Shown here: positions 55 through 25,500 of the stretch, piece after piece
Layout of the letters: every line of letters begins with the position of its first letter
How positions within the stretch are numbered: position 1 is the first letter of the stretch
From: Candidatus Lloydbacteria bacterium RIFCSPHIGHO2_02_FULL_50_18
Lineage (GTDB): Bacteria; Patescibacteriota; Minisyncoccia; Phycocordibacterales; UBA6899
Direction: 5' to 3'
Assembly: GCA_001821395.1 (NCBI GenBank)
Contig: MHLM01000015.1
Location: forward strand, 1-64,000
DNA: 64,000 bases
The notes under the pieces: model-generated
What the model was told of the DNA's origin: nothing
Seen by the model: only the letters and a program-made list of their open reading frames with translations
Databases searched by the model: none
Translations under genes and position numbers: made by a program

Positions 55-702
55 TTAATCCTTTAGTTTATTCATTGTGGTGACAATGTTTGATCCAAAT
101 TGCTCATAGATCATCGTTACAAATATCGTGGAGATGATGATCCAAACAAAAATATCGAAGATGATACCGATCTGTAACCCGGGAAATTGTTCAAGTCCTG
201 CAAAAATAGCAAAAACAACGATACTGTTTTCTAGCGATAAAATGCTTATGATCTGCGAAATTGCCTCCTTGCGATTTATGATCATGAAAAGAGAAATGAA
301 TATCCCGGAAAGCGCGATGGCCAAAATACCTTGGTGCAGAGGAATGATGTTCGTCAGCGGAAGTAGTCGCTGCGAGTGCGCCAAGAAGGTCAGCATGGCA
401 ATGACAATAAGCGTGAGCGGCATATTGAGATAGGTGCTTACCGAAAATGACAGTTGATGTTTTTCTATTAACCGAATAAAAAACATCGGGGCGAGGATGA
501 CCTTGATCACAAGGGTGAGCAAAACGAGCAGCAATACATATAAGTTTCTCGTCTCCAGATATGAGCTAAGGAAGATCATCATTACTGCAAAAGACTGTAT
601 ACCGAATACCATCGCTGCCAGATAATTTTTTTTTGTCAGGTTAAGGAAAATGAGGGAGAGAAAAATGAGACCTGCAAAGAACTGTAATATTGAGATATCC
701 AT
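55..702 (-). CDS. HyfE-like (NuoK-related) small membrane subunit of a hydrogenase-4/formate-hydrogenlyase-type complex
   Basis: 215 aa, multi-pass hydrophobic protein. Its size and position downstream of NuoL-like and NuoH-like genes match hyfE. Confidence 0.55.
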   Translation of the reverse strand: MDISILQFFAGLIFLSLIFLNLTKKNYLAAMVFGIQSFAVMMIFLSSYLETRNLYVLLLVLLTLVIKVILAPMFFIRLIEKHQLSFSVSTYLNMPLTLIVIAMLTFLAHSQRLLPLTNIIPLHQGILAIALSGIFISLFMIINRKEAISQIISILSLENSIVVFAIFAGLEQFPGLQIGIIFDIFVWIIISTIFVTMIYEQFGSNIVTTMNKLKD

Positions 703-703
703 A

Positions 704-1633
704 TTATAAGTAGATAAGACCTATTGCCACGGCATTAAGAATAAATGAAACGATCAACAGGTCAGGTAAACGAAAAAATCTGAATTTTGCCATCACTGAT
801 TCAATGACTGCGATAATAGCGGCAAACACACCCAACTTAAGGAAGAAGGCGGATAAGCCGATGATGAGCGCCCCGACCGATTCCGACGCGGCAAGACCTA
901 TTGGAAAGAAGACATTCGCACCGAGCATGAAGAAAATGACCAATTTATTAGCCGAAGCCCACTCCATCAACGCCAATTTTTTTCCGGAATATTCCAATAT
1001 CATTGCTTCGTGGATCATTGTGAGCTCAAGGTGCGTCGCAGGATTATCGAAAGGAAAACGCGCGGTCTCCGCCAGGAGAATGATGAAGAAACCGCTGAAT
1101 GCCAATATGGTTGGAATAAGATATTGCCCGTCAAAAAACAATGTATTACCTGATATGGTAAAAAGATCCGCAGTACCTGTCATGATCGCAATGGTCAATA
1201 AGGAAAAAATAAATCCCCCTTCCGCCAGTGCGGAAAGCGTCATCTCTCGACTTGAACCGAAACCACCGAATGCACTCCCCACGTCCATTCCCGCAAGTGC
1301 CAAGAAAAATGTTCCTATCGCAAGCGTATAGACGATCACAAGCATATCACTCATGAGGTGTGTACTCGAAAAAGAAGAAAATAGTGGAATACTTGCACCC
1401 GCAATGATCGTTACCCCAAAGACAACATACGGGGCTGCGCGAAATATCCAGGAAGCATCACTACTTACAACCTCATCTTTATAGAAAAGCTTTCGGAGGT
1501 CACTATACGGCTGTAATACACTTGCACCATCGCGGTTCTGCAATCGTGCCTTTATTTTTTTTATGATACCAACTGCAAGCGGTGCTACCGACGGTACAAG
1601 TATTATCTGAGTGAGCAAAAAGAAAAGATCCAT
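704..1633 (-). CDS. HycD/HyfC/NuoH-like membrane subunit (complex I subunit 1 family)
   Basis: 309 aa. The N-terminus LVPSVAPLAVGIIKKIKARLQNRDGASVLQPYSDLRKLF resembles the HycD/NuoH N-terminal consensus. About 8 TM helices. Confidence 0.8.
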   Translation of the reverse strand: MDLFFLLTQIILVPSVAPLAVGIIKKIKARLQNRDGASVLQPYSDLRKLFYKDEVVSSDASWIFRAAPYVVFGVTIIAGASIPLFSSFSSTHLMSDMLVIVYTLAIGTFFLALAGMDVGSAFGGFGSSREMTLSALAEGGFIFSLLTIAIMTGTADLFTISGNTLFFDGQYLIPTILAFSGFFIILLAETARFPFDNPATHLELTMIHEAMILEYSGKKLALMEWASANKLVIFFMLGANVFFPIGLAASESVGALIIGLSAFFLKLGVFAAIIAVIESVMAKFRFFRLPDLLIVSFILNAVAIGLIYL

Positions 1634-1639
1634 AAGTTT

Positions 1640-3691
1640 TTACAGTACAACGTATAATGAAATGATCAACGCGATAAAAATATAGGAAATATAGACATTG
1701 ATATTTCCACCTTGAATATTCTTCACTCGTAACGACAAGCCGTTGATCATTGTATTGATCGGTTCATAAAAATACTGTTGATACATATCAATGACATGCA
1801 TTGACACCTTCCCCGAATGTGAAAAATACCTACTCTGCTCATCGTGGTACCTTACCTCACGCTGAAGGCTTGGCTTCAGGACAGACTTAAAGACAAGAAT
1901 GATGGACCGAGCAAAACCGGTTGAAGTAATTTCCATCCGGGGTCCAAGAGTTGTGCCACAATCCCACGTTTTTCCGACGACTATTTTTTGTTTTCTGTTC
2001 ACAAGAAAGCGTACCGATATGACCACGATGCCAAAGACAACCGCGAAGAAACCGAGTATGACGGGGGCGGAGACGCGCGCGAAGCCGTCGGTAAGCAGAA
2101 GTCCGAGTTTTGGGGTAACAGAAACAAAAGACGTCGTAGTGTGAAAAATATCCAAACTTGCCGCGATTTGCTCAAGGAACCTTGTCACATATCCGGAAAA
2201 GATGCCAAAAAAGATAGTAACGATGGAGAGCAACCCCATGGCAACACGCATTGGCATGGCTGATTCCTTTGCGTGCAGGACTTCCCCGCTTCTCGGACGA
2301 GCAAGAAATATCGCTCCAAACGCTTTTGCGAAACACATCAATGCCAGCCCTCCGGTAAATACGAGCGAAGAAGCGGCGAGCACGAATATCCATCTCAACG
2401 AATAATGGAAGCTTGTTATGCCCTGAAACAACGACTGATATGTTAACCACTCACTGAAAAATCCGTTCAACGGGGGCAGTGCGGAGATCGCCATTGAACC
2501 GATAAGGAAGAAGAGCGCAGTCGATGGCATATATTTTATCAGGCCTCCATATTCTTCCATGTTCTTGGTATGTACCTCATTGATCACCGATCCGGCGCTC
2601 AAAAAGAGTAGCGACTTAAAGATCGCATGATTGATCGTATGAAAGAGGGCCGCAATAAAACTGAGCAATGCAAGTGAAGGGACTCCCAGAGTATAGAAGA
2701 TCAGTGCGCTACCAAGCCCAAGCAAGATGATGCCGATATTTTCGATACTGTGATACGCTAGCAACCTCTTAATATCATGCTCAGTAAGTGCATAGAGCAC
2801 TCCAAGTAAAGAAGAGACCGCACCGATGACCAACACTGTCTCACCCCACCACAATGGCACGGGCTGTAGTATGTCGAGGAATAATCTCATCATCATATAG
2901 ATACCGGTCTTGATCATGACACCCGACATGAGCGCAGAAACGTGAGAAGGAGCAGCCGGATGCGCCGCAGGAAGCCAAATATGAAGCGGGATGATACCGG
3001 CCTTTATTCCGAAACCGATCAGCGCAAAAATAAAGATCGCATTTTTGACAGACTGAGGTACAAGCGCTATCCCCGATGCAATAGCTGAAAAGTCAAAAGA
3101 ACCGGTGTACTTATAGAGGAACAAGAAAGCCAAGATAATGAACGCCGTCCCGACATAGGTCATGACGAGATACAGTGAGCCCGCTTTGATATTTGCCGGA
3201 TCGTTGCGATCATAGACAACGAGAAAGTAGGAGGCGATAGACATCAATTCCCATGCAATGAGAAAAAATAATGCATTTGCTGAAGATACGACCAAAAACA
3301 AACTCAGGAAGAGGATGTTATAAAAAAACCCAAGCGTCCCTAGCTGATATTTCCCGTAGTAATGCGTAACGTAACCGAATGCATAGACAGAACAAAAAAC
3401 ACCAATGAGCGAGATCGCAAATATAAAGAATGAAGAAAGTAGATCAACATGAAAAGAGAACGAGAGCAAGGAAAAAGGAGAACTCCCGATCATGAAATCA
3501 TACTCTTTACCCGCATAGATCGCAGCAGATGAAAAACATAACCCGAGAGCTGTGCCAAGTACCGCAAAAGAATTACTCCACCAATTTGTGACTTTGTCAT
3601 TTTTTTGCAAAAAAAGCGAGCCGATCGCGCCTGCTCCGAACAGCGCAAGCGCCGTAAGAAAAAATAGAGGAGAAAGTATTATTGTAAGCAT
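1640..3691 (-). CDS. HyfB/HycC/NuoL-like antiporter-type membrane subunit (NADH dehydrogenase subunit 5 / MrpA family)
   Basis: 683 aa polytopic protein with the conserved NuoL/MrpA-type core (WLPAAHPAAPSHVSALMSG, AYHSIENIG). Confidence 0.8.
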   Translation of the reverse strand: MLTIILSPLFFLTALALFGAGAIGSLFLQKNDKVTNWWSNSFAVLGTALGLCFSSAAIYAGKEYDFMIGSSPFSLLSFSFHVDLLSSFFIFAISLIGVFCSVYAFGYVTHYYGKYQLGTLGFFYNILFLSLFLVVSSANALFFLIAWELMSIASYFLVVYDRNDPANIKAGSLYLVMTYVGTAFIILAFLFLYKYTGSFDFSAIASGIALVPQSVKNAIFIFALIGFGIKAGIIPLHIWLPAAHPAAPSHVSALMSGVMIKTGIYMMMRLFLDILQPVPLWWGETVLVIGAVSSLLGVLYALTEHDIKRLLAYHSIENIGIILLGLGSALIFYTLGVPSLALLSFIAALFHTINHAIFKSLLFLSAGSVINEVHTKNMEEYGGLIKYMPSTALFFLIGSMAISALPPLNGFFSEWLTYQSLFQGITSFHYSLRWIFVLAASSLVFTGGLALMCFAKAFGAIFLARPRSGEVLHAKESAMPMRVAMGLLSIVTIFFGIFSGYVTRFLEQIAASLDIFHTTTSFVSVTPKLGLLLTDGFARVSAPVILGFFAVVFGIVVISVRFLVNRKQKIVVGKTWDCGTTLGPRMEITSTGFARSIILVFKSVLKPSLQREVRYHDEQSRYFSHSGKVSMHVIDMYQQYFYEPINTMINGLSLRVKNIQGGNINVYISYIFIALIISLYVVL

Positions 3692-3692
3692 A

Positions 3693-4289
3693 TTATTTTG
3701 CAGTTAGGGATCTCTTATCCACGACCTCCAGTATGTGCAGAAGCCCGAGCAAAATATCTTTGGGTGAGGGTGGGTCGCCGGGGATATGATAATGAACCGG
3801 GATGACAGAATCCACGCCGTCCATGACTGCATATGAACCCCTGAAGATCCCTCCATCAAGCGCATCATCACCGATCGCTACCACGATCTTAGGTTCCGGG
3901 GTCGCTTCATAGGCGTCCTTGACCGCCGAAGCCATATTTCTTGTAACTGGTCCTGTGACAAAAAGCATATCGGCATGGCGAGGAGAAGCGACAAAATGTA
4001 TACCAAAACGTTCAACATCGTAAAAATTATTCGATAGCGCAACCAATTCCTGCTCGCAGGCATTGTCGGAACCGGCATCAACCTGCCTTATTGCGAGCGA
4101 ACCATGAAAAAGGCGCTTAATATTATCGCGTACTTTTTCTCCCACCTCCGCATACGCTGCATTCGCAATATCCCCAGAGTCTATGCTAATGACATTATTT
4201 GGTGTCTTAATTATTTTGAGAAAAATATTCAACATATTTACCATTATGAAACGTCTAATACACTCGGACGAAATCGCTATCCCCCTCAA
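3693..4289 (-). CDS. NuoB/HycG-like small subunit (group 4 hydrogenase / complex I 20-kDa family) lacking most [4Fe-4S] Cys ligands
   Basis: Aligns along its length to E. coli HycG/NuoB (ERFGIHFVASPRHADMLFVTGPVT, IPVHYHIPGDPP). The canonical Cys positions read A-G-S-D-N-A-C, GDDALDGG and GDPP. Confidence 0.75.
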   Translation of the reverse strand: MRGIAISSECIRRFIMVNMLNIFLKIIKTPNNVISIDSGDIANAAYAEVGEKVRDNIKRLFHGSLAIRQVDAGSDNACEQELVALSNNFYDVERFGIHFVASPRHADMLFVTGPVTRNMASAVKDAYEATPEPKIVVAIGDDALDGGIFRGSYAVMDGVDSVIPVHYHIPGDPPSPKDILLGLLHILEVVDKRSLTAK

Positions 4290-4532
4290 CTATTTTTTCA
4301 GAAAAATCCACACAAATTGAACCCCATACCACAGATACCATGCTAACCATAAAACGAAATATGGTTGCAACTGGTGCAACTAATAGAATAAATATATGCA
4401 ATTTTTAAAATTAAGTCAAAAAATGGACATACTGAAGCCCTTTTCTGCCATTCTCGCTTCAAGAATGAACGGAGTGTCATTAGGAAAAATTGGTCGCGCA
4501 AAGCTCTTCGATTCCTGTTGGAGGAAATTCCA

Positions 4533-4572
4533 ATGCCGGGAATCTCGGCTACCGCCGCGGGTGATATTCAAT
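4533..4572. repeat. Repeat copy 1: 8-nt antisense tRNA-Pro 3' fragment (atgccggg) fused to a 34-nt element GGAATCTCGGCTACCGCCGCGGGTGATATTCAAT (identical at 25107-25140)
   Basis: Direct string identity between the two loci; a diverged third copy lies at 17406-17450. Confidence 0.7.
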
Positions 4573-4735
4573 CTCGACGACTCGATAATGAATATCCTTT
4601 CGATTCTCGTCGACAGTGCCGCAGAGTGAGAATCGGTCACGAGTTACTAAGCTTTTTATTTCGCTACGCTCATAAAAATCTAAGTACTCTCGACCCCGAC
4701 TCGCTCGCCTCGAAGACTCGGCATAGCTCCGTCTT

Positions 4736-4825
4736 TCGATCCCCGGGCGGGACTGAGGCAGCTCAGTCCCTCATCCCGACCATATGAAAAAACACCTGAT
4801 GGCGTTTTTTCATATGGTCGGGATG
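4736..4825. repeat. Plus-strand inverted partial copy of the tRNA-Pro 3' half (T-loop through CCA) interrupted by a 9-bp hairpin with a GCAG loop, followed by a 21-bp perfect inverted repeat that includes the real tRNA-Pro 3' end; also a bidirectional terminator
   Basis: ttcgatccccggg (4736-4748). Hairpin gggactgag-gcag-ctcagtccc (4749-4770). catcccgacca (4772-4782). Arms 4772-4792 / 4805-4825 with loop cacctgatggcg. Confidence 0.6.
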
Positions 4826-4888
4826 CCGGGAATCGAACCCGGTTCTTGCGAACCCGAATCGCAAATACTACCGGTGTACTACATCCCG
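4815..4888 (-). tRNA. tRNA-Pro (anticodon CGG), CCA encoded
   Basis: Manual cloverleaf: acceptor CGGGATG/CATCCCG with the C1:G72 pair typical of bacterial tRNA-Pro. Anticodon stem TGCGA/TCGCA, loop TTCGGGT, T-arm CCGGG-TTCGATT-CCCGG. 74 nt. Confidence 0.85.
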
Positions 4889-4955: not shown

Positions 4956-5189
4956 CTAGAGCCCGGTGAGCGCCGTTGAATAACTATCTAAAAACGAAGG
5001 GATCACAAGCACGAGCCCGATGAGTGGAATAATGAATACTGCAAGCGTGATCACCATCGTCCAAAAGAAATATTTTCTCGTCTTCTCTACTGAGACGTAT
5101 ATTGCATCGATCTTCCCCTCAAGCGTCTCAAGTTTTTTGTTTATTTCTGTTTCCATATTGCAAAGTGTAGCACGAGAAAATTCTTCCAA
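4956..5189 (-). CDS. hypothetical small protein (N-terminal coiled-coil, C-terminal TM helix)
   Basis: 77-aa ORF lying between the tRNA and the DUF2207 gene. Confidence 0.35.
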   Translation of the reverse strand: MEEFSRATLCNMETEINKKLETLEGKIDAIYVSVEKTRKYFFWTMVITLAVFIIPLIGLVLVIPSFLDSYSTALTGL

Positions 5190-5300
5190 ACAGCCTTGAG
5201 CGCGAGGCGTGGGGAAAGTGATGAGGAAGACTTATTCGTATAAGTTGACCGAATCACAGGGGTCCCCACAACAAAGTGGGCAAGGTTGTTTGGAGGGATT

Positions 5301-7082
5301 TTACCAACTTCCGCCACCACCGCCACCACCACCGCCTCCCGACATACCTCCCCCGCCCGAACCTCCGCCCGCACTTGCGAACGCAGTGCCCGCACTCGTA
5401 CTAAAGGCCCCCATCGAAGCTGCCAGCGCGGCCGCATTAAACCGTACCCCGCCGCCCTGGTACCAACGTTCGGCATCTTTCTTCGTGTACATGTCCACAA
5501 ACTTTTCCGCCCAGGCTTTCTCGACACCAAAGATCATCGCGTATGGAAGAAATCGTTCAAACGTTTTTGGCTCTTTTTCCGGTGCGTTTGCAAAATCGAT
5601 GCGATCCTTCTCCGCAACGGAGAGATATTCCTTAAACCCCTCGATCTCTTCACGCGCAATAGCACCCTGCTGTGTCCGTTTGCCCATAAAGTATCCGAAG
5701 ACCGTGACGATGACACCTGAAACAATGAGTGCCAAATTCCCGAATGAAAGCAGTGAGCCGATGACTATCAATGCGATACCTGTCAGCACGTAATTCCTCG
5801 TCGTGACCTGCGGATCCGTTTCAAAATAACCCAAAGAGGTGAGATCGACAGCGATGAGCTTTGATAGTTCACTCCTCACATCGACAAACTTGTGCGCAAG
5901 GGTTGATACGAGCACCGTTTCCCCGCTCGCACGAAGCGTATCGTAAAGCATTTTTTCCGGTGCAGTAAGCAGGCTCGTATCAACGCCGGGGAGAAAATGC
6001 AGTCGATGATCTTCGTTTGTGACCAACAGTCTCTTTTTCTTCGTACGCTCGATAGTGAGCAATCCGCGCACGGCGAAGTCGATGATCGCTGCTGATATTG
6101 TTTTGGGCTTGAGATCCGAGTGATACAAATATCCGAGCTCAAGTGTCGTCAAATGCTTCGGTATATCGTATTGCGCGATGATCGTCCCCCGGCCTTTTGG
6201 ATCGCGACCCTTTTTCCACCAGATATTCCACATGACCACGAATACGACAAGCGGTATGAGTGCACTCATGCCAAGAAAATCATTTTTCCACCAGCGATAG
6301 AATCCCACACTGTCTGCGAGTTTTTTCACCGATGACTTTGGAGCAATGAGGAATATGCCCTTCGGTATCCCTACGGCAACGGTCATTCCCTCATTTGAGT
6401 GCAGCGAGCCATCATAGGTAAAACGTACGGAATTGATGATTCCCGTTCCCTCTTGCGGAGTGGACGATGCGGTGCACAATGCAGTGCTTCCCAGGGGACC
6501 AACATAACACGCACTTGAAATACTATTTTCGTTGAGCGGAAGCGGCAGGATCACGTCAGTACGTACTGCGGCGATAGTTTGCTTCCATTCATTCCCCGTG
6601 ACATTCCAATAGAACTCATCCTTGCCTGCCAACCCCTGATTGATCGCACCCCAGACCGTGTAATGAATGACGTAGAGCTGTCTTCCCGTGACCTCAACAT
6701 CAGGGTCGCCGATCTTCAACTCCATATAATTCCCTCCGCCCGAATACTTCGACTCCCGGAGGTTTCCCTTGCCGTCCGTGACCATGATACTTGAGATCTC
6801 TATGCTGCGTGCTGCACGCTCTCCCGGAACGGTGAAAGTGAGCGGAATGCGACGATAGATCCCATGTCGCACTTCACCATCCGGATTAAAACTATAGACG
6901 ATCTCTTCTTGCACGACAGCACTACCGTTCGGTTTCAACTCGATATGCGCAGTGAATGCGTCGATAGAGTCATCCGCGAACGCGAAAAAAGGCGTCAAAA
7001 AAAAGAAAGCAGCACAGACCAGTCGAAGAAACCGATGATCAGTCATTGTCACCGAGCTTCTTTTTAACGTCCTCGAATTCAT
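5301..7082 (-). CDS. DUF2207-family membrane protein (signal peptide, extracytoplasmic domain, TM segments, Gly-rich C-terminal tail)
   Basis: 593 aa. Domain layout and the terminal GGGSGGGGMSGGGGGGGGGGSW tail match DUF2207. The start could alternatively be ATG 7046 (MTDHRFL). Confidence 0.6.
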   Translation of the reverse strand: MNSRTLKRSSVTMTDHRFLRLVCAAFFFLTPFFAFADDSIDAFTAHIELKPNGSAVVQEEIVYSFNPDGEVRHGIYRRIPLTFTVPGERAARSIEISSIMVTDGKGNLRESKYSGGGNYMELKIGDPDVEVTGRQLYVIHYTVWGAINQGLAGKDEFYWNVTGNEWKQTIAAVRTDVILPLPLNENSISSACYVGPLGSTALCTASSTPQEGTGIINSVRFTYDGSLHSNEGMTVAVGIPKGIFLIAPKSSVKKLADSVGFYRWWKNDFLGMSALIPLVVFVVMWNIWWKKGRDPKGRGTIIAQYDIPKHLTTLELGYLYHSDLKPKTISAAIIDFAVRGLLTIERTKKKRLLVTNEDHRLHFLPGVDTSLLTAPEKMLYDTLRASGETVLVSTLAHKFVDVRSELSKLIAVDLTSLGYFETDPQVTTRNYVLTGIALIVIGSLLSFGNLALIVSGVIVTVFGYFMGKRTQQGAIAREEIEGFKEYLSVAEKDRIDFANAPEKEPKTFERFLPYAMIFGVEKAWAEKFVDMYTKKDAERWYQGGGVRFNAAALAASMGAFSTSAGTAFASAGGGSGGGGMSGGGGGGGGGGSW

Positions 7083-17349: not shown

Positions 17350-17405
17350 ACATACTGAGGCGTTAAGCCTCGACGCTCATTTTAACATATTTAACGCCCT
17401 AGCTG

Positions 17406-17450
17406 TGGACCATAACGGAATCTCCACCTACCGTGGCGGGTGGATTCTCC
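17406..17450. repeat. Degenerate tRNA-Ala 3'-end-like repeat (att-like), diverged copy of the 25096-25140 element, located just past the end of hsdR
   Basis: tggaccataacggaatctccacctaccgtggcgggtggattctcc, compared by eye with tggaccgtacaggaatctcggctaccgccgcgggtgatattc and with the 3' part of tRNA-Ala(GGC). Confidence 0.5.
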
Positions 17451-17469
17451 TACGGAACAATACAAATTG

Positions 17470-19827
17470 CTATTTTACCCCCGCGTACAAACTTCTCTGG
17501 AAATCAAAAAAGGTCGAGCGAATAGCGTCTACATCCCCGAGAATATCCACCGCATCAGCAATAGCGTGATATTTCAAATTGAGCAATTGCGGGAGCTTTT
17601 CTTCGTCGAGCTCCTCGACTCCGCGCTCGACATACTTAGCAAGTACGAACTCAAGAAAATCTTTTTGATCATCATTCAATCCGCCCAAGATTGCACTCTT
17701 GGCACCCAAAACACGATCGACGCGCGAGATTGGCTGTACGCAAAACGAGACATAAGCGAGCACGTCAAACAAATCACTGTTTTCCGCATCGATCATCTTT
17801 TGAAGTATCTCAAGCTCATCCTTCCCATACCCCGCCTCAGCAAGCTTATCGAGAAATACTTTTCTCGTACTTGGATTGGCCCAAATTTCACGAAGCTCAA
17901 CTTCATTCTTATAAAATGAAGGGAGTGCACCGAACATGTTGTTCATAAATTCCTCTACCGAGATCGGCTTCCCATCTGCGCTCCAAAATGAGGTGGAGAT
18001 CATATGCTTTATTTCTCGATCCTTTCCATCCCGCAACTTTATTTTAAGCTTTTGTATGGGTGGAGGCACATCGCACACGCACGGCTTCTGTCCGCACACA
18101 ACGCATGGCGCGGTCGGAGGCTTCACACACACACAGGGCGTCATACCACATGCTGCACAGGGTTGTTTCGGCGCTGGCTCCACTATCGGCTCATCAATGG
18201 GCTCTCCGTCCCACTCAGGGTCAGCGAAGTGATGATACGCATCCACAAAGTCATAGATAGTGAAATACTCCTTTCCGTCAAAGAGCCGAGTTCCTCGTCC
18301 AACGATCTGCTTAAACTCAATCATGGAGTTTACGGGGCGCATCAGTACAATATTGCGAATGTTTCGCGCATCGACTCCCGTCGAGAGCTTTTGTGAGGTA
18401 GTGAGGATGGTGGGGATACTTTTTTCATTATCCTGGAATTCTTTCAAATACTGATCCCCGCGAGCACCGTCATTGGCCGTCACGCGCACACAATAATTTG
18501 GCTCAGTGCTCTCTTTCATCTGATTCACCAAGTCACGCACTGCGAGTGCATGGTCTTGTGTTGCGCAAAAGATAATAGTCTTTTCGTTTTGATTTATCTC
18601 CTCAAGTATGACGCGTACACGCTTCGCCTCACGCTCCTTGATCTCGATGATCTTATTAAAGTCCGCCTCTTCGTAGATTTTTCCTTCCTCCACTTCCCCC
18701 TCGATGATCTGGTCGTCCGAAGTGTACACATAATCATCCATCGTCGTCTTGATACGCTTCACCTTAAATGGCGTCAGAAATCCGTCATTCACTCCGGTTT
18801 TGAGCGAGTAAGTGTATACGGGCTTTCCGAAATAGTTGTAGGTGTCCACGTTGTCTTGCCTGCGTGGCGTCGCGGTGAGCCCAAGGTGTACCGCAGGCGC
18901 GAAGTGCTCGAGGATCGCTCGCCAATTGCTCTCATCGTTCGCACCCCCACGATGACACTCGTCAATAATGATCAGATCAAAAAAGTCCGAGGGATAGTCC
19001 CCGAAATATGGCGAACCATTTTGCCCGCTCATAAAAGTCTGGAATATGGTGAAAAAGATGCTCCCATTTGTGGGCACAGCACCCTTCTTCCGTATATCAA
19101 GTGGATTAATGCGCACAAGTGCATCCTCATGGAAAGCCGAGAATGAATTAAATGCCTGATTTGCTAAAATATTTCTGTCGGCAAGAAAGAGGATTCTCGG
19201 GCGCCTCCCTCCATCTCGCGCCAAGTTCCATCGTGACTGAAAAAGCTTCCACGCGATCTGAAATGCAATAAAAGTTTTCCCCGTGCCTGTCGCAAGCGTT
19301 AGAAGCGCCCGTTGCTTGTTTTCCGCAATTGCATCGAGTGTATTGTTCACGGCAATTTCTTGATAGTATCGCGCACTCTTTGTGCCGTTCATATCCTCAA
19401 ACGGGACAGCGGCAAATTTCTCCTTCCATGCATTTTGGTCAGAATAGACCATGTTCCATAATTCATCAGGAGTCGGGAAACGTTCCACATATTTCTCCGC
19501 ACCCGTCTCCATGCATATCTCGTATATTTCTTTGCCGTTAGTGGCATAGGTATATTTGATCTCAAGTTTCTCAGCATAAGCCTTCGCCTGTGCGACGCCC
19601 TCCGTCGCCGAGAGTCCCTCATGCTTTGCCTCCACAACCCCGATCTTCATGTTTTTATAAACCAAAATATAGTCAGCGATCTCAGGCTTCCCGCGTACTC
19701 CACCAGTCATAATGCGTCCGAGGGTTATGCGAAACTCCCGCAGGACCTTCGATCCCTCGATCTCGCCCCATCCGGCTTCTTTCAGCTTCGGATCAACATA
19801 TTCCGCTCGTGTTTCAGATTCATTCAT
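17470..19827 (-). CDS. hsdR: type I restriction enzyme R subunit
   Basis: N-terminal PD-(D/E)xK (ADYIL...VVEAKHEG). SF2 motifs (LATGTGKTF, DECHRG, TATPRRQ, motifs V/VI). EcoEI-R-type C-terminal domain. Unusual Cys-rich insert at 18067-18159. Confidence 0.85.
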   Translation of the reverse strand: MNESETRAEYVDPKLKEAGWGEIEGSKVLREFRITLGRIMTGGVRGKPEIADYILVYKNMKIGVVEAKHEGLSATEGVAQAKAYAEKLEIKYTYATNGKEIYEICMETGAEKYVERFPTPDELWNMVYSDQNAWKEKFAAVPFEDMNGTKSARYYQEIAVNNTLDAIAENKQRALLTLATGTGKTFIAFQIAWKLFQSRWNLARDGGRRPRILFLADRNILANQAFNSFSAFHEDALVRINPLDIRKKGAVPTNGSIFFTIFQTFMSGQNGSPYFGDYPSDFFDLIIIDECHRGGANDESNWRAILEHFAPAVHLGLTATPRRQDNVDTYNYFGKPVYTYSLKTGVNDGFLTPFKVKRIKTTMDDYVYTSDDQIIEGEVEEGKIYEEADFNKIIEIKEREAKRVRVILEEINQNEKTIIFCATQDHALAVRDLVNQMKESTEPNYCVRVTANDGARGDQYLKEFQDNEKSIPTILTTSQKLSTGVDARNIRNIVLMRPVNSMIEFKQIVGRGTRLFDGKEYFTIYDFVDAYHHFADPEWDGEPIDEPIVEPAPKQPCAACGMTPCVCVKPPTAPCVVCGQKPCVCDVPPPIQKLKIKLRDGKDREIKHMISTSFWSADGKPISVEEFMNNMFGALPSFYKNEVELREIWANPSTRKVFLDKLAEAGYGKDELEILQKMIDAENSDLFDVLAYVSFCVQPISRVDRVLGAKSAILGGLNDDQKDFLEFVLAKYVERGVEELDEEKLPQLLNLKYHAIADAVDILGDVDAIRSTFFDFQRSLYAGVK

Positions 19828-20477
19828 GATGATTGTTTCGCACCATACTGCTTAACTGCCACACCGTCATATCTTTCTTTGAGTCCCTCATAAATAAGAC
19901 TCACGAGGGGCTTATAATCATCGGCATGATCGATTTGCGCAAGCGCCTGACGGTAGCGATTCTTATTTTCCTTTTCTACTTTTATTGATATACCAATTAA
20001 CCCGTAGCGCTCCAAAATCAAATTCGCAGCAAGACGAGCAGTGCGTCCGTTCCCATCCCGAAATGGATGAACGCAGGTGATAGAATAATGCAACCATGCC
20101 GCCAGATGAATAACTCGCTCAACCGTCTGATGGACTTTCGCCATGCTTACATTTTTTCCTCTTATTATTCCCTCTGCTTTATCTAGCGCTTGTAATTTTT
20201 TCTGCAACTCGACCTCCCTTTCGTTCATGAGGTCATTTATTTTTGAGTGATGAGGGGGGACGTGACTTGAGTCTGTTATTTCAAGATTTTCCGTTCTATA
20301 CTTTCCCGCAATATCAGGCCAGGCATCTTTGAATATTTCCCGATGAATTTCCTTGATCGTTTCAATCGAAATACCCTTGTGTGATCGTGCAAATTTTCTT
20401 ACAAAACGAGAAGCGCGGATCACTCCAATCGCTTCTCGTTTTTGTAACTCTTCTTCCGAGCGCGGACACTCTACCAT
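19824..20477 (-). CDS. Fic/DOC-family protein (putative AMPylating toxin, FicT-like)
   Basis: Fic motif HPFRDGNGRTARL. Confidence 0.85.
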   Translation of the reverse strand: MVECPRSEEELQKREAIGVIRASRFVRKFARSHKGISIETIKEIHREIFKDAWPDIAGKYRTENLEITDSSHVPPHHSKINDLMNEREVELQKKLQALDKAEGIIRGKNVSMAKVHQTVERVIHLAAWLHYSITCVHPFRDGNGRTARLAANLILERYGLIGISIKVEKENKNRYRQALAQIDHADDYKPLVSLIYEGLKERYDGVAVKQYGAKQSS

Positions 20478-20485
20478 GGCAATGC

Positions 20486-20680
20486 TTACGCTACTTTTAG
20501 CGCAAGTTTTTCAAATTCCCCGCGATCAAGCTTGCTTCCCTCAAGCGCACTCGAATAATAGGCATGCTCAATATCCCAACTTTTTTCAAGGGCGGATTTT
20601 TGTTTTGGCGTAAGCTGAGAAATCTGTCGTTCTGCAACTTTCTTACTCGCCATTAACTGTACGAGCCGTAGATTCTTCAT
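20486..20680 (-). CDS. FicA/VbhA-like small antitoxin carrying the inhibitory [S/T]xxxE[G/N] helix motif
   Basis: 64-aa ORF. Motif IEHAYYSSALEGS. Its stop lies 9 nt before the Fic ATG, in a different frame. Confidence 0.55.
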   Translation of the reverse strand: MKNLRLVQLMASKKVAERQISQLTPKQKSALEKSWDIEHAYYSSALEGSKLDRGEFEKLALKVA

Positions 20681-20772
20681 GGATATGACTATACCACTAT
20701 TTGACTATTTTACAACTCCTCATGTTTCAGGGGTGACTCCTTGGCCTTGAAAGGTGTCTCCTCGGAAACTGC

Positions 20773-21978
20773 TCACAACTCCCCAGCAAAGGCCTTTTTC
20801 AACACTGATTTTTTAAGCTCCTCAATATCAGCAAGTTTTTGCCCGTAGATTCCTTCAAGTTTTTTTGTCTGCTCCGCAAGCGCATCGAGCTTTTTGACGA
20901 TGGTTTTTTGCTCTGAGACAGATGGAAATGGAAACCGCTCATGCTCAAACGTTGCCATGTTGATATTGGCCTGCGCACTTCCTTTTCCTTTTGCCTGGAG
21001 TACTGCCTTAAATGATTGCAAAAGATACTCGACAAAATTAGTATCTGCAATTTTGGGATTAGCAACAAGTCCGATCACGCTATCAGGAAAACACGCATCG
21101 AAATTCAGAATTCCAGTTTCTGCGATATTCGCCGCAATCGTAATGCAGATAGTTCCTCTCGGCCACAGCTTGCTCTGCGCCAGTCCCGCCTCGCTATACG
21201 ACTGTGAGTACTCCACAATAAAGTGTCCAGAATTTCGAATATCTCCCGTCTGAATAAAGGGGTACTTTCCGCCATAGAGTTTTTTGTCGTTTCTTGGGCG
21301 ATGCTTAGATTTTCCTCTGCCGAATTGCAGGGAGACTTCTTCTAGCGTCTTTTTCTCCCATTTCGAATTTTCAAAAACCCCCTGCAAATACGATTCAAAA
21401 AGTTCGCGGGAATTCTTCAAATTCTTCTCCGCATTCTCCTTCGCCTTCTCCACTCCCTCAAAAACCTCATCAAGAATTTTTACGATGCGCTTTTGCTCGA
21501 TCGCAGAAGGAAAAGGTATCTCAACCTCTTTTAATTTTGTTCCAGAAAGTTCCTTAAAAGTTGTACCACTACCCAAACTATTCAAAAGTTCAACTGAATC
21601 TTTCAAAAAATAATAGAGAAATTTTGTATCAAGATTTTTATTCGGTATTAATCCCTTACACCCCTGATTTGTTGAAATTTCTTTTGTGTTTATCGCCAAG
21701 TGACCAATCGGAGCACGGGTAGACAAAATAATCGAGTTGGGTGGAATGATTTTTGCTGACGACCTTTCTAATCCAGCCTTTGAAATTTTTCGTTCTGTTT
21801 CCTCAACGTATATTTTCCTAAGTCTCCCCATGTCTTTGGGTGTGATCCACAAAATATTTCCATCCCAGTACCTCAAAACGCCCGTTTTAGGAGTTCCTCC
21901 GTTTACAATCTCGCAAACCTCCCCAAGTTTTTTTATTTGCCAGTTAGTTTTCATAGTGAGAAATAATTTGCTTTCCAT
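20773..21978 (-). CDS. hsdS: type I restriction-modification specificity subunit
   Basis: Two target-recognition-domain layout with conserved central/C-terminal helices. TRD motif EIVNGGTPKT. Alternative start ATG at 21954. Confidence 0.85.
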   Translation of the reverse strand: MESKLFLTMKTNWQIKKLGEVCEIVNGGTPKTGVLRYWDGNILWITPKDMGRLRKIYVEETERKISKAGLERSSAKIIPPNSIILSTRAPIGHLAINTKEISTNQGCKGLIPNKNLDTKFLYYFLKDSVELLNSLGSGTTFKELSGTKLKEVEIPFPSAIEQKRIVKILDEVFEGVEKAKENAEKNLKNSRELFESYLQGVFENSKWEKKTLEEVSLQFGRGKSKHRPRNDKKLYGGKYPFIQTGDIRNSGHFIVEYSQSYSEAGLAQSKLWPRGTICITIAANIAETGILNFDACFPDSVIGLVANPKIADTNFVEYLLQSFKAVLQAKGKGSAQANINMATFEHERFPFPSVSEQKTIVKKLDALAEQTKKLEGIYGQKLADIEELKKSVLKKAFAGEL

Positions 21979-23113
21979 TCTGTATCAATTGGTCGTAAGT
22001 GAGAATGTCTATATCATGTAAACTAGAGTTTAAAAAATGAAGAGCTTTTTTCTCATCCTCAGTAAAGGCATCTGACCGACCGAGAATGAGCTGGACTCTT
22101 GGTCTTAGTATTCGAACAGAGTGCTGAATCGACAAAGTTTTTTTATAGTCTTCGATTCTTTGTAAATAAATTAAGGACTGACCAATTGCTTCCGAGAAAG
22201 GGCTCGTAGGGAAATGGCAACGATGCGAAGTATCATATCTAAACAGCGGGCTGCCGACACTTGGCCTCTTAACTTCAATGAGGCTGATAAATCCATCGGG
22301 CGTTTCGAGTACGATGTCTGCCTCAGAGTTATCTTCTCCAATCTTCCTGAATGTGTGCTTTTTGTAGTACTCGACTCCAAAAACCCACAAATTAGCCCCA
22401 ATCCATTTATGAAACACACCCTCTGGTTGATTTGCGTGATATTTCTTTAGTGCACCATTTCCTTTTATTGCCTCAAGGAAATTCACGTCAGATTCGATGC
22501 TTAAAAGGTATTCTAAATTAGCAATAGCCTCTTTGTGTTCTTTTTGTTTTATTGCTGCGCTCAAACTCTCGACGTCAAGGGCATCAATATTCTCAATAAA
22601 CTTCTGAAATAAACTATTTCTTTCAGCGGTGCCCAACTTATTAAAAAGCTGAAACAGCTGATCAGATGTTAATGCTTGCGACCCATGCAATAACTGTGAA
22701 AATGCATTCTTTCGCTCCACAAGTTCACTTACGTTTTGATCAGTAAATTTTAAATTTTCCTTAGAAGTTAAGTCCAGTAAATCTAATGATTCAAGAAACT
22801 TAATAAAGCGAGTAAGTGCTCCTCCATGAAAACTGAAAGATTGATTATGTGGTATGCCAGTATCTTTTGAAAATCTTTGAATGCGCAATGAAAACCCAGT
22901 GGTGTCTTGATTATAAATAGCGGTTATTTCTTGCACTGCGCTTTCGCGTATGACCTCAAAAACTTTCTTTTCTTTTTGATCGTTATAAAAATCTTTAAAA
23001 TCTTTTAGCTCAAATACTTTTGAAATGTATCTGATGTTCCCATCTTTCCCAATCGCCCTACTCACATAAGTAAGTGCGGGGTCTTTTTTGATCGCATACT
23101 CTCCATTGCTCAT
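21944..23113 (-). CDS. uncharacterised protein with a putative PD-(D/E)xK nuclease core, nested between hsdM and hsdS (possibly DUF4263/Shedu-like; candidate accessory defence gene)
   Basis: 389 aa. Motif SEADIVLETPDGFISLIEVKRP (D...E-x-K). The gene overlaps both neighbours by a few nt, so it is in the operon. Confidence 0.5.
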   Translation of the reverse strand: MSNGEYAIKKDPALTYVSRAIGKDGNIRYISKVFELKDFKDFYNDQKEKKVFEVIRESAVQEITAIYNQDTTGFSLRIQRFSKDTGIPHNQSFSFHGGALTRFIKFLESLDLLDLTSKENLKFTDQNVSELVERKNAFSQLLHGSQALTSDQLFQLFNKLGTAERNSLFQKFIENIDALDVESLSAAIKQKEHKEAIANLEYLLSIESDVNFLEAIKGNGALKKYHANQPEGVFHKWIGANLWVFGVEYYKKHTFRKIGEDNSEADIVLETPDGFISLIEVKRPSVGSPLFRYDTSHRCHFPTSPFSEAIGQSLIYLQRIEDYKKTLSIQHSVRILRPRVQLILGRSDAFTEDEKKALHFLNSSLHDIDILTYDQLIQNGKQIISHYEN

Positions 23114-24555
23114 AACAAGTTTTTCAATATCTGAGCACTTTCTTTATCCAATTTCTCCATTTCCTTCAAAATCTCCTTCGGGGTGCGCAGCGCTACCTCA
23201 CCTCCCTTGTTTGGATTCTTTGCCGATAGGTCGAAGGTCTTCTGGTCGACGTCTTTTATGTCTATGCTCCATGAATTTTCAGAATCACCATTCGTCTCTT
23301 GGAGTTTTATAAAATCAGCAAGGTCGGCTTCGTTGAGTGCATTGGTCTTGCCGAGGTTGCGGTCGAGGTTGAGCTGATAGAACCAGACTTTTTTCGTTGG
23401 TGCACCCTTCTCAAAAAAGAGTATGACCGTTTTCACCCCTGCACCAGTGAATGTGCCACCTGGCAGGTCGAGCACGGTGTGGAGATTGCAACTTTCAAGC
23501 AGCATTTTGCGAAGCGACACCGAAGCATTGTCGGTGTTGGAAAGAAAGGTGTTTTTGATGACCACACCCGCTTTTCCTCCGGCTTTCAGCATTTTGATGA
23601 AATGCTGGAGAAAAAGAAATGCCGTCTCTCCCGTTTTGATAGGAAAATTCTGCTGTACCTCAGGTCTCTCTGAGCCTCCAAATGGCGGATTCGCAAGCAC
23701 GATCTCATAGCGGTCTTTCTCCTGAATATCCGCAAGGTTTTCGGCAAGTGTGTTGGTGTGAATGATGTTCGGAGCCTCGATGCCATGGAGAATCATGTTC
23801 ATGATGCCAATGATGTAGGCGAGCGATTTCTTCTCCTTGCCGTAAAATGTCTTCTTCTGAAGTGTCTGCATGTCGCTTGTCGAAAGCTTCTTGCTCTCCT
23901 TCAAGTATTCAAACGCTTCCACGAGGAATCCCGCCGAGCCCACAGCCCCATCATAGACTTTATCGCCGATTTTTGGAGCGACCACCTTCACGATGGTCTT
24001 GATGAGTGGGCGCGGGGTGTAGTACTCGCCACCATTGCGCCCTGCGTTGCCCATGTTCTTTATCTTGCCCTCGTAAAGGTGTGAAAGCTCGTGCTTTTCG
24101 CTCTGCGAGCGAAAGTGCATTCCATCCACGAGGTTCAGCACCTCGCGGAGGTTGTACCCACTTTGTATCTTGTTTTTGATCTCGCTAAAAATTTCTCCGA
24201 TCTTGTACTCGATCGTGTCGGGACTCACTGCATCCGCCTTGAATTTCTTGAAATACGGAAAAAGCTCGCGCTCGACGAAATCCTTAAGGTCATCACCCGA
24301 CAGTGCTTTGCTGTGGTCAATCTTCTTATCTCCTGTCTTGGGCACTGCCCACACTTCCCAGCGAAACTTCGGCGAGATGATATATTCGTATTTTTTACCT
24401 GCGAGCTTCGCCTCGGTCTCCTTATCCTTTTCAAGATCATCAAGATACTTGAGAAAGAGCACCCACGAAGTCTGCTCGATATAATCCAGCTCACTCGACG
24501 CCCCCGCATCCTTACGCAATATGTCATCAATATTTTTAAAGTGTTGTTCAAACAT
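23110..24555 (-). CDS. hsdM: type I restriction-modification N6-adenine DNA methyltransferase
   Basis: HsdM N-terminal domain. SAM-binding motif DGAVGSAGFL. Catalytic motif NPPFG. Start moved to ATG 24555 because the longer ORF would overlap the tRNA. Confidence 0.9.
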   Translation of the reverse strand: MFEQHFKNIDDILRKDAGASSELDYIEQTSWVLFLKYLDDLEKDKETEAKLAGKKYEYIISPKFRWEVWAVPKTGDKKIDHSKALSGDDLKDFVERELFPYFKKFKADAVSPDTIEYKIGEIFSEIKNKIQSGYNLREVLNLVDGMHFRSQSEKHELSHLYEGKIKNMGNAGRNGGEYYTPRPLIKTIVKVVAPKIGDKVYDGAVGSAGFLVEAFEYLKESKKLSTSDMQTLQKKTFYGKEKKSLAYIIGIMNMILHGIEAPNIIHTNTLAENLADIQEKDRYEIVLANPPFGGSERPEVQQNFPIKTGETAFLFLQHFIKMLKAGGKAGVVIKNTFLSNTDNASVSLRKMLLESCNLHTVLDLPGGTFTGAGVKTVILFFEKGAPTKKVWFYQLNLDRNLGKTNALNEADLADFIKLQETNGDSENSWSIDIKDVDQKTFDLSAKNPNKGGEVALRTPKEILKEMEKLDKESAQILKNLL

Positions 24556-24561
24556 TTTTTT

Positions 24562-24637
24562 TGGTGGACCATGGGAGAATCGAACTCCCCACCTCTTCCA
24601 TGCCATGGAAGCGCTCTACCAAATGAGCTAATGGCCC
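24562..24637 (-). tRNA. tRNA-Ala (anticodon GGC), CCA encoded
   Basis: Manual fold: acceptor GGGCCAT/ATGGTCC with G3:U70. D-arm GCTC-ATTTGGTA-GAGC. Anticodon loop ATGGCAT. T-arm GGGAG-TTCGATT-CTCCC. 76 nt. Confidence 0.85.
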
Positions 24638-24892
24638 GTAGAAAGATGATAACTTACAAATGGGTTTTCTTCAATGAAGACGGGGGGGGTCGAGTCGTGA
24701 AGGGAGTCGAAGCTTATTCGAGATCGTCATCGCAAGCTTTGTGGAGATGGCAAGTCGTGTAGTGCGTTGCCGGAGGGCAACACTGCTACGAAAAAGCCAA
24801 CCGGGTGTCTGGCTTTGCGGACTTGGCTTACAGCTTCAGTACGCCTTTTCGATTTATTCAGAGCGAAGCTCTTCATAAATAACGAAAAGCCC

Positions 24893-24988
24893 TTCGACTC
24901 CCCGCCGCAAGTGAAGCAGTTCACTTGCTTGAGTCCACAGGTACAAAAAAATTACGATTTCTCGTAATTTTTTTGTACCTGTGGACTC
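24893..24988. repeat. Inverted partial copy of the tRNA-Ala(CGC) 3' half (T-loop, GCAG-loop hairpin insert, acceptor 3' strand) followed by a 27-bp perfect inverted repeat / bidirectional terminator
   Basis: ttcgactccccg (24893-24904). Hairpin gcaagtgaa-gcag-ttcacttgc (24907-24928). Arms 24931-24957 / 24962-24988 with loop tttc. Confidence 0.6.
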
Positions 24989-25052
24989 ACGGGGAGTCGA
25001 ACCCCGGACTCGGCAATGCGAATGCCGTGTAATACCACTTTACTATGAGCCC
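24982..25052 (-). tRNA. tRNA-Ala (anticodon CGC), CCA not encoded
   Basis: Manual fold: acceptor GGGCTCA/TGAGTCC with G3:U70. Anticodon arm CGGCA-TTCGCAT-TGCCG. T-arm CGGGG-TTCGACT-CCCCG. Confidence 0.8.
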
Positions 25053-25095: not shown

Positions 25096-25140
25096 TGGAC
25101 CGTACAGGAATCTCGGCTACCGCCGCGGGTGATATTCAAT
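25096..25140. repeat. Repeat copy 2: 14-nt antisense copy of the tRNA-Ala(UGC) 3' end (tggaccgtacagga) fused to the same 34-nt element as 4539-4572; first unit of a degenerate tandem array of tRNA-3' fragments (cgtacaggaat at 25101, 25145 and 25314)
   Basis: Exact 34/34 identity with 4539-4572. Repeated cgtacaggaat and ccagtttc-r-attt strings between 25096 and 25420. Confidence 0.65.
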
Positions 25141-25398
25141 TTCGTACAGGAATTTCGACGCCTACTGCGTCAGTACCCAGTTTCAATTTGAATACAGGAC
25201 TCTTCCTCTACGAGGACAGTATACCTTTCACCACAGAGAGTACTTCTTGTTTTCTAGCTCACTTCGTTCGTAAGTAAACAATGTCGTCCGTTTACTGAGG
25301 ATAAGAATCCTGCCGTACAGGAATCTCTCCCCTTACAGGGGCAGTGTCCAGTTTCGATTTACTCAAAATAGGAATTTCTCGTAAATATCGAAACAGGC

Positions 25399-25500
25399 TT
25401 CGAGTCCTTACGCAAGCAATGCAGATTGCTTGCTACGGTCCACACCATATAAGAAAAAACTGCCTTACGGCAGTTTTTACTTTATGGTGTGGACCGTACA
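25399..25500. repeat. Inverted partial copy of the tRNA-Ala(UGC) 3' half with GCAG-loop hairpin insert, plus a long imperfect inverted repeat / terminator
   Basis: ttcgagtcct (25399-25408). Hairpin gcaagcaat-gcag-attgcttgc (25412-25433). tacggtccacacc (25434-25446) inverted against gtgtggaccgta (25486-25497). Terminator aaaaactgcc-ttac-ggcagttttt. Confidence 0.55.

Follow-up and report, generated by a model that had tools for sequence, protein, structure and literature searches.

A structured repeat family matched to its neighbouring tRNA genes in Patescibacteria

Immediately behind tRNA genes of Patescibacteria we found a family of structured repeats that are linked to these genes and matched to them in sequence. 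The units of this family are variably present, are stacked in tandem, and share modules between different tRNA loci. Full-text literature searches returned no description of such elements, and the family is apparently undescribed so far. Our best explanation, for and against which we consider the case evenly balanced, is that the units are small non-autonomous elements which insert in the 3' portion of tRNA genes by way of a folded single strand.

The analysis began with a window of 64,000 nucleotides (the whole stretch of DNA examined). It is part of the chromosome of a member of Candidatus Lloydbacteria (Parcubacteria, candidate phyla radiation) that lives in Rifle groundwater; contigs identical to it are present in several metagenomes, and its D-Ala-D-Ala ligase shares 100% identity with a protein from a RIFCSPHIGHO2_01_FULL Lloydbacteria genome. 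The window carries four tRNA genes, all on the minus strand, three of which have a unit directly behind them and are referred to here as loci 1, 2 and 3 (Table 1). The ORFs that neighbour the units are housekeeping genes, and the units themselves contain none. Small plus-strand ORFs drawn over them (for example 4396-4629) were rejected as spurious, because the block that they share runs on in non-coding copies.

Inverted tRNA copies and an inserted hairpin at three loci

The original prediction was that the 3' half of the tRNA recurs as an inverted copy behind three tRNA genes, each copy being interrupted by a hairpin. The plus strand reads as described at all three loci: a copy of the T-loop and T-stem 3' strand is followed by a 9-bp stem with a GCAG loop (hpC), one T, and the acceptor 3' strand. 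After the inverted acceptor 3' strand and discriminator come the tRNA's own trailer and then an A-run, a hairpin and a T-run. The near-perfect palindromes that had been claimed are likewise present (Table 1), and the single mismatch between the locus 1 arms is a G.T wobble on the minus strand. Every window palindrome has at its centre the A-run, GC hairpin and T-run of an intrinsic terminator; a terminator was called on both strands at locus 3 and was recognised by inspection of the sequence at loci 1 and 2. The proposal of a bidirectional terminator stands for the window but not for several relatives; the minimal units in L016, L024 and L021 are without one.

Perfect hairpins with a stem of 8 bp and a loop of 4 nt number only eight in the 64-kb window, and the three of them with a GCAG loop are those of our loci. 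No hairpin with a GCAG or CTGC loop appeared in any of 200 shuffles of the window. The three-locus pattern is not due to chance, as had been argued from its recurrence. The loop was also described as identical, which holds for all three window sites but does not extend to the relatives: on the tRNA strand it is CTGC in most of these and CCGC, CTAC, CAAC or TAAT in some.

One way to obtain such sequences, also among the original suggestions, would be growth of a palindrome at the tRNA terminator, by template switching or by fold-back repair, leaving a cruciform-prone site of no further identity. The near-perfect palindromes do take in the gene-specific trailer, the trailers differ between species yet both palindrome arms change in step, and in L003 and L006 the assembly is broken at the palindrome of locus 3. 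However, this account leaves unexplained why hpC sits at the same junction everywhere, and it has no place for the conserved non-tRNA hairpins, the linkers and the direct repeat described below. Template switching alone, which had been raised at the outset, fails on the same-junction hairpin and on non-tRNA modules conserved across phylum-level lineages. Units that lack the palindrome altogether (L016, L024, L021) largely refute palindrome growth, and we regard it as very improbable. The variant contigs of L003 and L006 were also considered as empty sites and rejected; they differ only at the locus 3 palindrome, contain Ns and odd low-complexity sequence, and look like assembly artefacts. Palindrome-linked breaks of this kind matter for the assembly of such genomes.

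Architecture of the units

The 90 bases flagged originally are just the tRNA-proximal end of a larger unit, so that one end had been seen and the direct repeat, two further conserved hairpins and a long-range helix had been missed. Units are 96-300 nt long, non-coding and heavily folded, and they lie immediately 3' of tRNA genes on the tRNA strand. Read along that strand, the tRNA is followed by an optional trailer, terminator palindrome and complement of the acceptor 3' strand (a'). Next come hpC (8-9 bp, usually with a CTGC loop), the complement of the T-stem 3' strand and T-loop (t'), and AGG; then a long hairpin, which is hpM in type II units and hpB in type I units, and CACCCG or a variant of it. 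The unit closes with a short hairpin that has GTA in its GGTAG-like loop (hpD or hpA), AGA, and a direct repeat of tRNA sequence that begins at G57 of the T-loop. The inverted tRNA segment near the tRNA-proximal end is thus interrupted by hpC at the T-stem/acceptor junction, the linkers between hairpins (TCGAARGG, CACCCG, the loop GGTAG and AGA) are conserved and single-stranded, and in the window a direct repeat lies about 290 nt (Pro) or 390 nt (Ala-UGC) further out from the tRNA.

Modules are common to different loci. A 34-nt block at the Pro locus (4539-4572) is identical to one at the Ala-UGC locus 20 kb away (25107-25140), where the outermost module carries both this block and hpD; at both loci the block is next to the direct repeats. 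Homology between the Ala-CGC unit and the Ala-UGC unit extends over about 95 nt, and the trailer and terminator of the Pro locus are related to those of the Ala-UGC locus. The middle of the proximal unit at locus 1 is homologous to the unit behind tRNA-Ala(GGC) in L011, L017 and L020 and to that behind tRNA-Val in L028, and an orthologue of the type I unit at locus 3 is present in L011 and L013. Besides its palindrome, the locus 2 unit contains a second inverted match, of 12 nt.

Table 1. Coordinates of the tRNA genes, units and unit parts. Positions refer to the window, except for the displaced unit of L016.
Feature	Position	Strand	Remarks
Locus 1
tRNA-Pro(CGG)	4815-4888	-	target gene of locus 1; CCA encoded; ARAGORN, Rfam tRNA 56.3 bits
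Palindrome	4772-4825		acceptor 3' strand, CCA, trailer; A-run/hairpin/T-run terminator; mirror copy
Palindrome arms	4772-4796 with 4801-4825		25 nt, 96% complementary
Inverted acceptor 3' strand and discriminator	4772-4782		
hpC	4749-4770	-	perfect 9-bp stem; GCAG on plus strand, CTGC on tRNA strand
t'	4735-4747	-	inverted T-loop and T-stem 3' copy
Middle of proximal unit	4629-4734	-	includes long imperfect hairpin; covariance-model match 4676-4771, E=5e-4
Distal type II unit	4532-4628	-	degenerate hpC; model R1 75.5 bits, E=6e-16
t' of distal unit	4596-4611		
hpM arms of distal unit	4563-4569, 4590-4596		followed by CACCCG
hpD of distal unit	4546-4557		
Direct repeat of distal unit	4533-4544		ATGCCGGGAATC, identical to 4823-4834
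Older decayed unit remnant	4400-4531	-	by comparison with type I units, weak; t'-like ACAGGAATCGAAGAGC and TTTGCG start of type I hairpin at 4503-4518 (weak)
Locus 2
tRNA-Ala(CGC)	24981-25052	-	target gene of locus 2; ARAGORN, Rfam
Type I unit	24797-24989	-	model match 24797-24929, E=1e-6; fold z = -13 to -15
Palindrome	24930-24989		
Palindrome arms	24930-24957 with 24962-24989		28 nt, 100% complementary
Inverted acceptor 3' strand and discriminator	24930-24937		
hpC	24907-24928		perfect 9-bp stem; GCAG on plus strand, CTGC on tRNA strand
t'	24893-24904		inverted T-loop and T-stem 3' copy
hpB	24845-24889		
hpA	about 24825-24835		
Weak repeat of tRNA-Ala(CGC) 3' end	24817-24824	-	
Terminator-like hairpin	24793-24818		straddles border of older debris and type I unit
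Older unit debris	24638-24796	-	degenerate tRNA-Ala(CGC) T-arm copies 24679-24715; by eye, weak
Locus 3
tRNA-Ala(UGC)	25489-25562	-	target gene of locus 3; ARAGORN, Rfam
Type I unit	25309-25498	-	model match 25314-25434, E=7e-7; fold z = -10 to -15
Palindrome	25434-25498		
Palindrome arms	25434-25458 with 25474-25498		25 nt, 88% complementary
Inverted acceptor 3' strand and discriminator	25434-25442		
hpC	25412-25433		perfect 9-bp stem; GCAG on plus strand, CTGC on tRNA strand
t'	25399-25411		inverted T-loop and T-stem 3' copy
hpB	25351-25394		
hpA	25329-25341		
Direct repeat	25313-25325		
Three further right-end modules	25096-25308	-	each a short GTA-loop hairpin with tRNA-Ala(UGC) 3'-end direct repeat
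Direct repeats of right-end modules	25190-25203, 25143-25158, 25096-25112	-	25096-25112 is TGGACCGTACAGGAATC and matches 25490-25506; more copies at 25143 and 25309
hpD of outermost module	25114-25125		
Other sites
tRNA-Ala(GGC)	24562-24637	-	no unit directly behind
Truncated unit end	17405-17454	-	model match 17410-17509; 97.7% identity over 44 nt to L016 unit
Displaced type I unit, L016	16295-16413		beyond 5 kb cargo downstream of tRNA-Ala(UGC)

Occupancy and copy number among relatives

Lloydbacteria relatives were reached through the D-Ala-D-Ala ligase gene (L011, L013, L016, L017 and L018). A pattern for the hpD module, scanned against a species-representative collection, returned four further Patescibacteria genomes and one chance match, and a longer pattern returned 12 metagenome loci. 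All genuine matches were immediately downstream of a tRNA gene and on its strand, the tRNAs being Ala-GGC, Ala-CGC, Lys-UUU and Val-GAC. Units are thereby seen behind tRNA-Pro, Ala-UGC, Ala-CGC, Ala-GGC, Lys-UUU and Val-GAC, in more than 10 Patescibacteria genomes or contigs.

Which tRNA gene is occupied differs between relatives. Behind tRNA-Ala(UGC) the window has one complete unit plus three right-end modules, L011 has two units, L013 has one of type I, L017 has one of type II, and L016 and L018 have none. The tRNA-Ala(GGC) gene is occupied in L011, L016 and L017 and empty in L013 and L018. In the relatives the DUF2207 gene has no tRNA behind it, so that the tRNA-Pro locus offers no occupied/empty comparison.

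Size and copy number also vary. The minimal units (L016, L024) measure about 100 nt, and in them hpC begins right after CCA. In L025 the direct repeat extends through trailer and terminator. Tandem identical units of 140 nt occur in L034 and L035, and L028 and L035, which are 97% identical, differ in the number of units. Recent copying is suggested by the identical tandem units and by the blocks that are identical at different tRNAs. Unequal crossing-over between repeats could yield tandem copies without any site-specific activity. Indirect signs of mobility are the presence or absence of units between species and these differences in copy number. No circular or excised form of a unit was seen, and no exact empty site in a near-identical strain. 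The original prediction had offered three identities for the structure, and of these a tRNA-targeting insertion element fits best because of the direct repeats, the variable occupancy, the tandem copies and the non-tRNA modules common to different tRNAs.

Units match the tRNA next to them

We then compared t' with tRNA genes at its seven variable positions. Across 15 instances, t' matched the adjacent tRNA at a mean of 6.3 positions, versus 3.7 for other tRNAs; the locus 1 copy agrees with tRNA-Pro at six of the seven. Direct repeats were found in the window and at 12 or more other loci (at least 12), with lengths from 9 to >40 nt and up to 14/14 positions identical to the tRNA. This matching is not continuously renewed. 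In three species t' of the Ala-UGC unit lacks the same single base, and in L022 and L026 a compensated pair change has altered the T-stem of tRNA-Lys, with t' and the repeat still in the older form. Since the Ala-UGC deviation has been kept in three species, that unit may be old and conserved in place instead of being a recent insertion. In L023, L021 and window locus 1 the repeats end after 9-12 nt with no acceptor strand behind them, which would not be expected from a simple integrase crossover.

A conserved fold supported by covariation

The RNAalifold consensus of nine type II units consists of four helices, hpC, P1, hpM and hpD, where P1 is a long-range helix between t' and the direct repeat; 24 of the 32 pairs are compensatory. 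With a covariance model (R1) built from this alignment, the window's type I units were also recovered, at E values no higher than 1e-6. Among 17 distinct sequences, in an alignment that was fitted to the model, 94.1% of cells were paired and 28 of 32 pairs showed double changes. None of 500 shuffles paired as well as observed, and slid partner columns paired in 36-48% of cells. Compensatory covariation of the stems, proposed from three hairpins, therefore holds and is strengthened by the relatives. Both strands of P1 come from the tRNA, so part of its covariation is built in; independent evidence is provided by the three hairpins hpC, hpM and hpD.

Folded from tRNA G57 to their end, the window units each adopt two three-way junctions that are linked to one another (z = -9 to -15 relative to mononucleotide shuffles), and the outcome is the same for linear and circular molecules. 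Within the hairpins we counted seven G.T wobbles on the tRNA (minus) strand and two A.C mismatches; the latter would count as wobbles if the opposite strand were read. The imbalance hints weakly that the folded strand is that of the tRNA. A plus-strand small RNA, another of the identities first suggested, is not favoured, given this bias, the lack of a conserved promoter at the units and the terminator that is missing in several relatives.

The same fold could belong to a cellular tRNA-like RNA, transcribed with or beside the tRNA, matured by tRNA-processing enzymes and serving a host function, with an acceptor-like and a T-stem-like helix and with hpC in place of the D and anticodon arms. Strong covariation and the wobble bias towards the tRNA strand are consistent with this, and minimal units have no terminator between tRNA and hpC. 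In L025 and L030 the original trailer and terminator of the tRNA come after the unit, the 3' end of a unit equals that of a tRNA, and the linkers are conserved over distant Patescibacteria. On the other hand, a strong terminator separates tRNA and unit in the window and in many relatives, and the copies are degenerate, stacked, variably present and in some cases truncated, which is not what a housekeeping RNA would look like. No T-loop is in loop form, and the Ala copies are without the G3:U70 pair. Rfam 15, searched both with the gathering threshold and with E values of up to 5, returned only tRNAs plus noise and no family for the unit. We therefore consider a cellular RNA distinctly unlikely. 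The best non-tRNA match in Rfam was the permuted tmRNA, at 27.9 bits versus a threshold of 47, over the tRNA end and the palindrome; this match is due to the succession of T-arm, acceptor 3' strand, loop and acceptor 5'-like strand.

Displaced units and a defence island

The covariance model also recovered units that no longer adjoin a tRNA. In L016, a type I unit lies on the far side of cargo that follows tRNA-Ala(UGC) (Table 1). The window has a truncated unit end that reads, in order, t'-like CGTAGGAGAATC, CACCCG, hpD (CCAC-GGTAG-GTGG), A, and then GATTCCGTTATGGTCCAC. When tRNA alleles were compared, GATTCCGTTATGGTCCAC proved to be the 3' end of tRNA-Ala(GGC) in the allele found in relatives. 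A 7.1-kb defence island, which has genes for a type I restriction system, Shedu and Fic, starts 5 nt after the tRNA-Ala(GGC) of the window and has this truncated unit at its far end. No direct repeat of the present tRNA-Ala(GGC) was found within three mismatches; the repeat at 17405-17422 is that of the other allele. From the position of displaced units beyond cargo and island we infer that newer insertions adjoin the tRNA and that older ones have been pushed outward.

Such arrangements could also arise if the units were decayed attachment-site arms of larger islands or prophages, left immobile after internal deletion, with hairpins that are terminators or protein-binding sites and with tandems produced by unequal crossing-over. 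A regenerated tRNA with a displaced 3' fragment is the classic signature of islands in tRNA genes (PMC4383910), and CIMEs are known deletion derivatives of islands that retain both att sites (PMC5704250). The defence island between tRNA-Ala(GGC) and the truncated unit end and the 5 kb of cargo between tRNA-Ala(UGC) and the old unit in L016 are as this origin would have it, as is the failure to find a recombinase, and the CGAG direct repeats within the hpM loop look like arm-type binding sites. However, the same compact architecture, without cargo, is found again and again behind six tRNA species and in more than 10 genomes. Four helices are kept by compensatory change, which neutral debris would lose and duplex binding sites would not need. 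Identical tandem units and identical blocks at different tRNAs also tell against decay, and we found no cargo-bearing element with both ends and an integrase. We think it unlikely that the units are such remnants.

Searches for a carrier or an enzyme

In viral contigs our first pattern gave four chance matches, without hairpin or tRNA, and our second gave none. BLAST against phages and plasmids matched a generic terminator and nothing else, so no carrier of the unit emerged. There is no recombinase gene in or beside any unit, and tblastn with XerD, an approximate query of limited sensitivity, had no match in the window or in loci L001-L035. By eye, the units contain no attC core motifs, and the junction sequences contain no hammerhead or other small-ribozyme cores.

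The end hairpins of IS608 are similar in size to hpC (22 nt with a 4-nt loop), and REP elements carry GTAG, as the hpD loop does. By analogy, the unit might be an IS200/IS605-type or REP-like element that a Y1 (HUH) transposase moves as ssDNA, in which case hpC would be the transposase-binding hairpin and its tRNA-complementary flanks would be enlarged guide sequences. The general likeness extends to short, non-coding intergenic hairpins and to target-complementary sequence beside a hairpin of about 22 nt. Y1 transposase genes do lie within 1.5 kb of the tRNA-Ala cluster at two of about 15 independent loci (L011 and L016). They are of different types, and none is present in the window or at the other loci. 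We discarded the link, as the L011 gene belongs to an ordinary IS200-like insertion with different end hairpins of its own and the L016 gene looks truncated. Moreover, IS200/IS605 elements insert without a direct repeat, unlike the units, whose repeats are 9 to >40 nt long and whose much longer complementarity spans 9-14 nt on each side of the hairpin with strict tRNA specificity; hpC and hpD are also dissimilar to each other. A Y1-driven element is improbable on these grounds.

A possible route of integration

If the units are non-autonomous integrating elements, as we favour, each would bring its own copy of the tRNA 3' end, and recombination within the shared segment would insert it. Insertion would regenerate the tRNA and push the old 3' fragment and any older units downstream, and the displaced fragment would then be the direct repeat. 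The active form is probably single-stranded and folded, with DNA of the tRNA-sense strand as the likeliest candidate; we favour this because the stems co-vary and a duplex circle of about 100 bp is physically implausible. In the folded strand the tRNA copy and the inverted copy would pair and imitate the end of a double-stranded tRNA gene, hpC would branch off at the T-stem/acceptor junction, and the remainder would form the second three-way junction. A recombinase would have to act in trans.

A bolder version is that the unit is a self-contained single-stranded mobile element, of DNA or RNA, that encodes the choice of target in its own sequence. The segments flanking hpC would pair with the displaced sense strand of the tRNA gene or mimic the duplex, and the branched fold would be recognised by an enzyme, either of the host or acting in trans, that places the element at the T-loop. 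If this were true, altered hpC-flanking segments would retarget the element to another tRNA, and it would be protein-less, programmable and the smallest known integrating element. We hold self-targeting to be a doubtful prospect.

Integron attC sites and the attP(+) of CTX phage are imperfect palindromes in which structure is conserved over sequence; the CTX hairpin is used by Xer, and integrated copies stand in tandem. The units likewise have a compensatory single-strand fold, which by analogy would mimic a double-stranded target with an unpaired or branched central feature. They differ in that their target is the end of a tRNA gene and not attI or dif, that the branch is a full 9-bp hairpin, that there is a second three-way junction, and that no IntI or Xer gene was found nearby. 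Nor do they resemble MITEs, since the inverted copy is internal and pairs with the flanking repeat, whose length is not fixed. They are also unlike plain bidirectional tRNA terminators, as the palindrome reaches into the tRNA and is optional, being one module of the unit. Closest in outline are genomic islands and CIMEs, in which the tRNA is regenerated, the displaced fragment is the far-end direct repeat, accretion is serial and derivatives are non-autonomous (PMC4383910; PMC5704250). An intact tRNA with a displaced fragment is found here too, but no element-encoded integrase, and the units are 10 to 100 times smaller, carry no gene, combine an inverted with a direct copy of the target, and contain co-varying hairpins. 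We accordingly place the family among elements that integrate into tRNA genes, with a modest chance that the mechanism is new.

Genomes of the candidate phyla radiation are tiny and have few recognised mobile elements. A tRNA-specific family of this kind, if widespread, would help to explain why tRNA loci are hot spots for defence islands and rearrangement. Should what moves be a folded single strand bearing both a copy and an anti-copy of its target, the family would supply a new, very small case of structure-based site-specific integration. The co-varying design of the units over six tRNA targets offers a ready series for testing how target specificity is encoded. GC skew on the plus strand is negative across the whole window, and by the usual rule the tRNA strand would therefore be the lagging-strand template.

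Gene content around the tRNA genes

We compared the surroundings of the tRNA genes and their units, the small structured non-coding elements directly 3' of these genes, between the window and its relatives. In relatives (L040-L042, compared with window 55-4888) no tRNA-Pro is found behind the DUF2207 gene and the ATP synthase operon comes next, whereas the window has tRNA-Pro, units and a NuoB-like/Mrp-antiporter-like cluster at this position. This entire segment may be an acquired block.

The defence island of the window combines the type I restriction genes hsdM, hsdS and hsdR with a Fic gene, a 64-aa ORF and a Shedu (SduA) gene, the last of which sits inside the restriction cluster, between hsdM and hsdS; the Lloydbacteria relatives L011 and L013 are without it. 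The tRNA-Ala(GGC) that precedes the island has a compensated T-stem, GGGAG/CTCCC, wholly unlike that of the displaced tRNA-Ala(GGC) 3' fragment (17405-17422), which reads CCGTT and differs at a single base from CCGCT, the T-stem sequence in relatives.

Recombinase and transposase genes lie at or near tRNA-Ala in some relatives. The 3' end of the serine recombinase gene of L018 overlaps the 5' end of a tRNA-Ala(GGC) of the same allele as that of the window, and this region may represent another element using tRNA-Ala(GGC). The Y1 transposase genes of L011 and L016, at most 1.5 kb from the tRNA-Ala cluster, probably inserted at a hot spot, with no relation to the units. The 95-nt repeats upstream of tRNA-Ala(UGC) in L016 are another type of tRNA-fragment duplication, this one 5' of the gene: each opens with the tRNA 5' end (GGGCCGTTAGCTCATCTGG...) plus a portion of the anticodon arm.

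At tRNA-Lys(UUU), the end of a GIY-YIG-like ORF coincides exactly with the start of the tRNA gene in two genomes, between which the ORF is strongly divergent and the tRNA-linked unit and downstream sequence are identical.

Locations of features at tRNA genes and units
Feature	Location	Strand	Remarks
Small GIY-YIG-like ORF	L021 ~1482-1760; L022 ~5114-5390	minus	
Defence island, 7.1 kb	window 17470-24561	minus	immediately 3' of tRNA-Ala(GGC)
Y1 transposase genes	L011 12961-13395; L016 11555-12106		IS200-like and RAYT-like
Large serine recombinase gene	L018 14112-15713		adjoins LysM and SLT genes
Two tandem 95-nt repeats	L016 11074-11264		upstream of tRNA-Ala(UGC)
CGAG/CGAA repeats in hpM loop	e.g. 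window 4570-4589		columns 50-66 of unit alignment A1
Assembly breaks/scrambles	L003 2409-2482; L006 2662-2703		exactly at locus 3 (tRNA-Ala(UGC)) palindrome

Loop motif and assembly breaks

In almost all units, two direct repeats of CGAG (or CGAA), separated by 4-5 nt, lie in the apical loop of hpM, the long hairpin in the middle of type II units; longer units contain runs of CGAG. These loop repeats could be a protein-binding motif.

The units cause misassembly. Two independent assemblies of the same strain (L003 and L006) have an N run and odd low-complexity sequence at the locus 3 palindrome.
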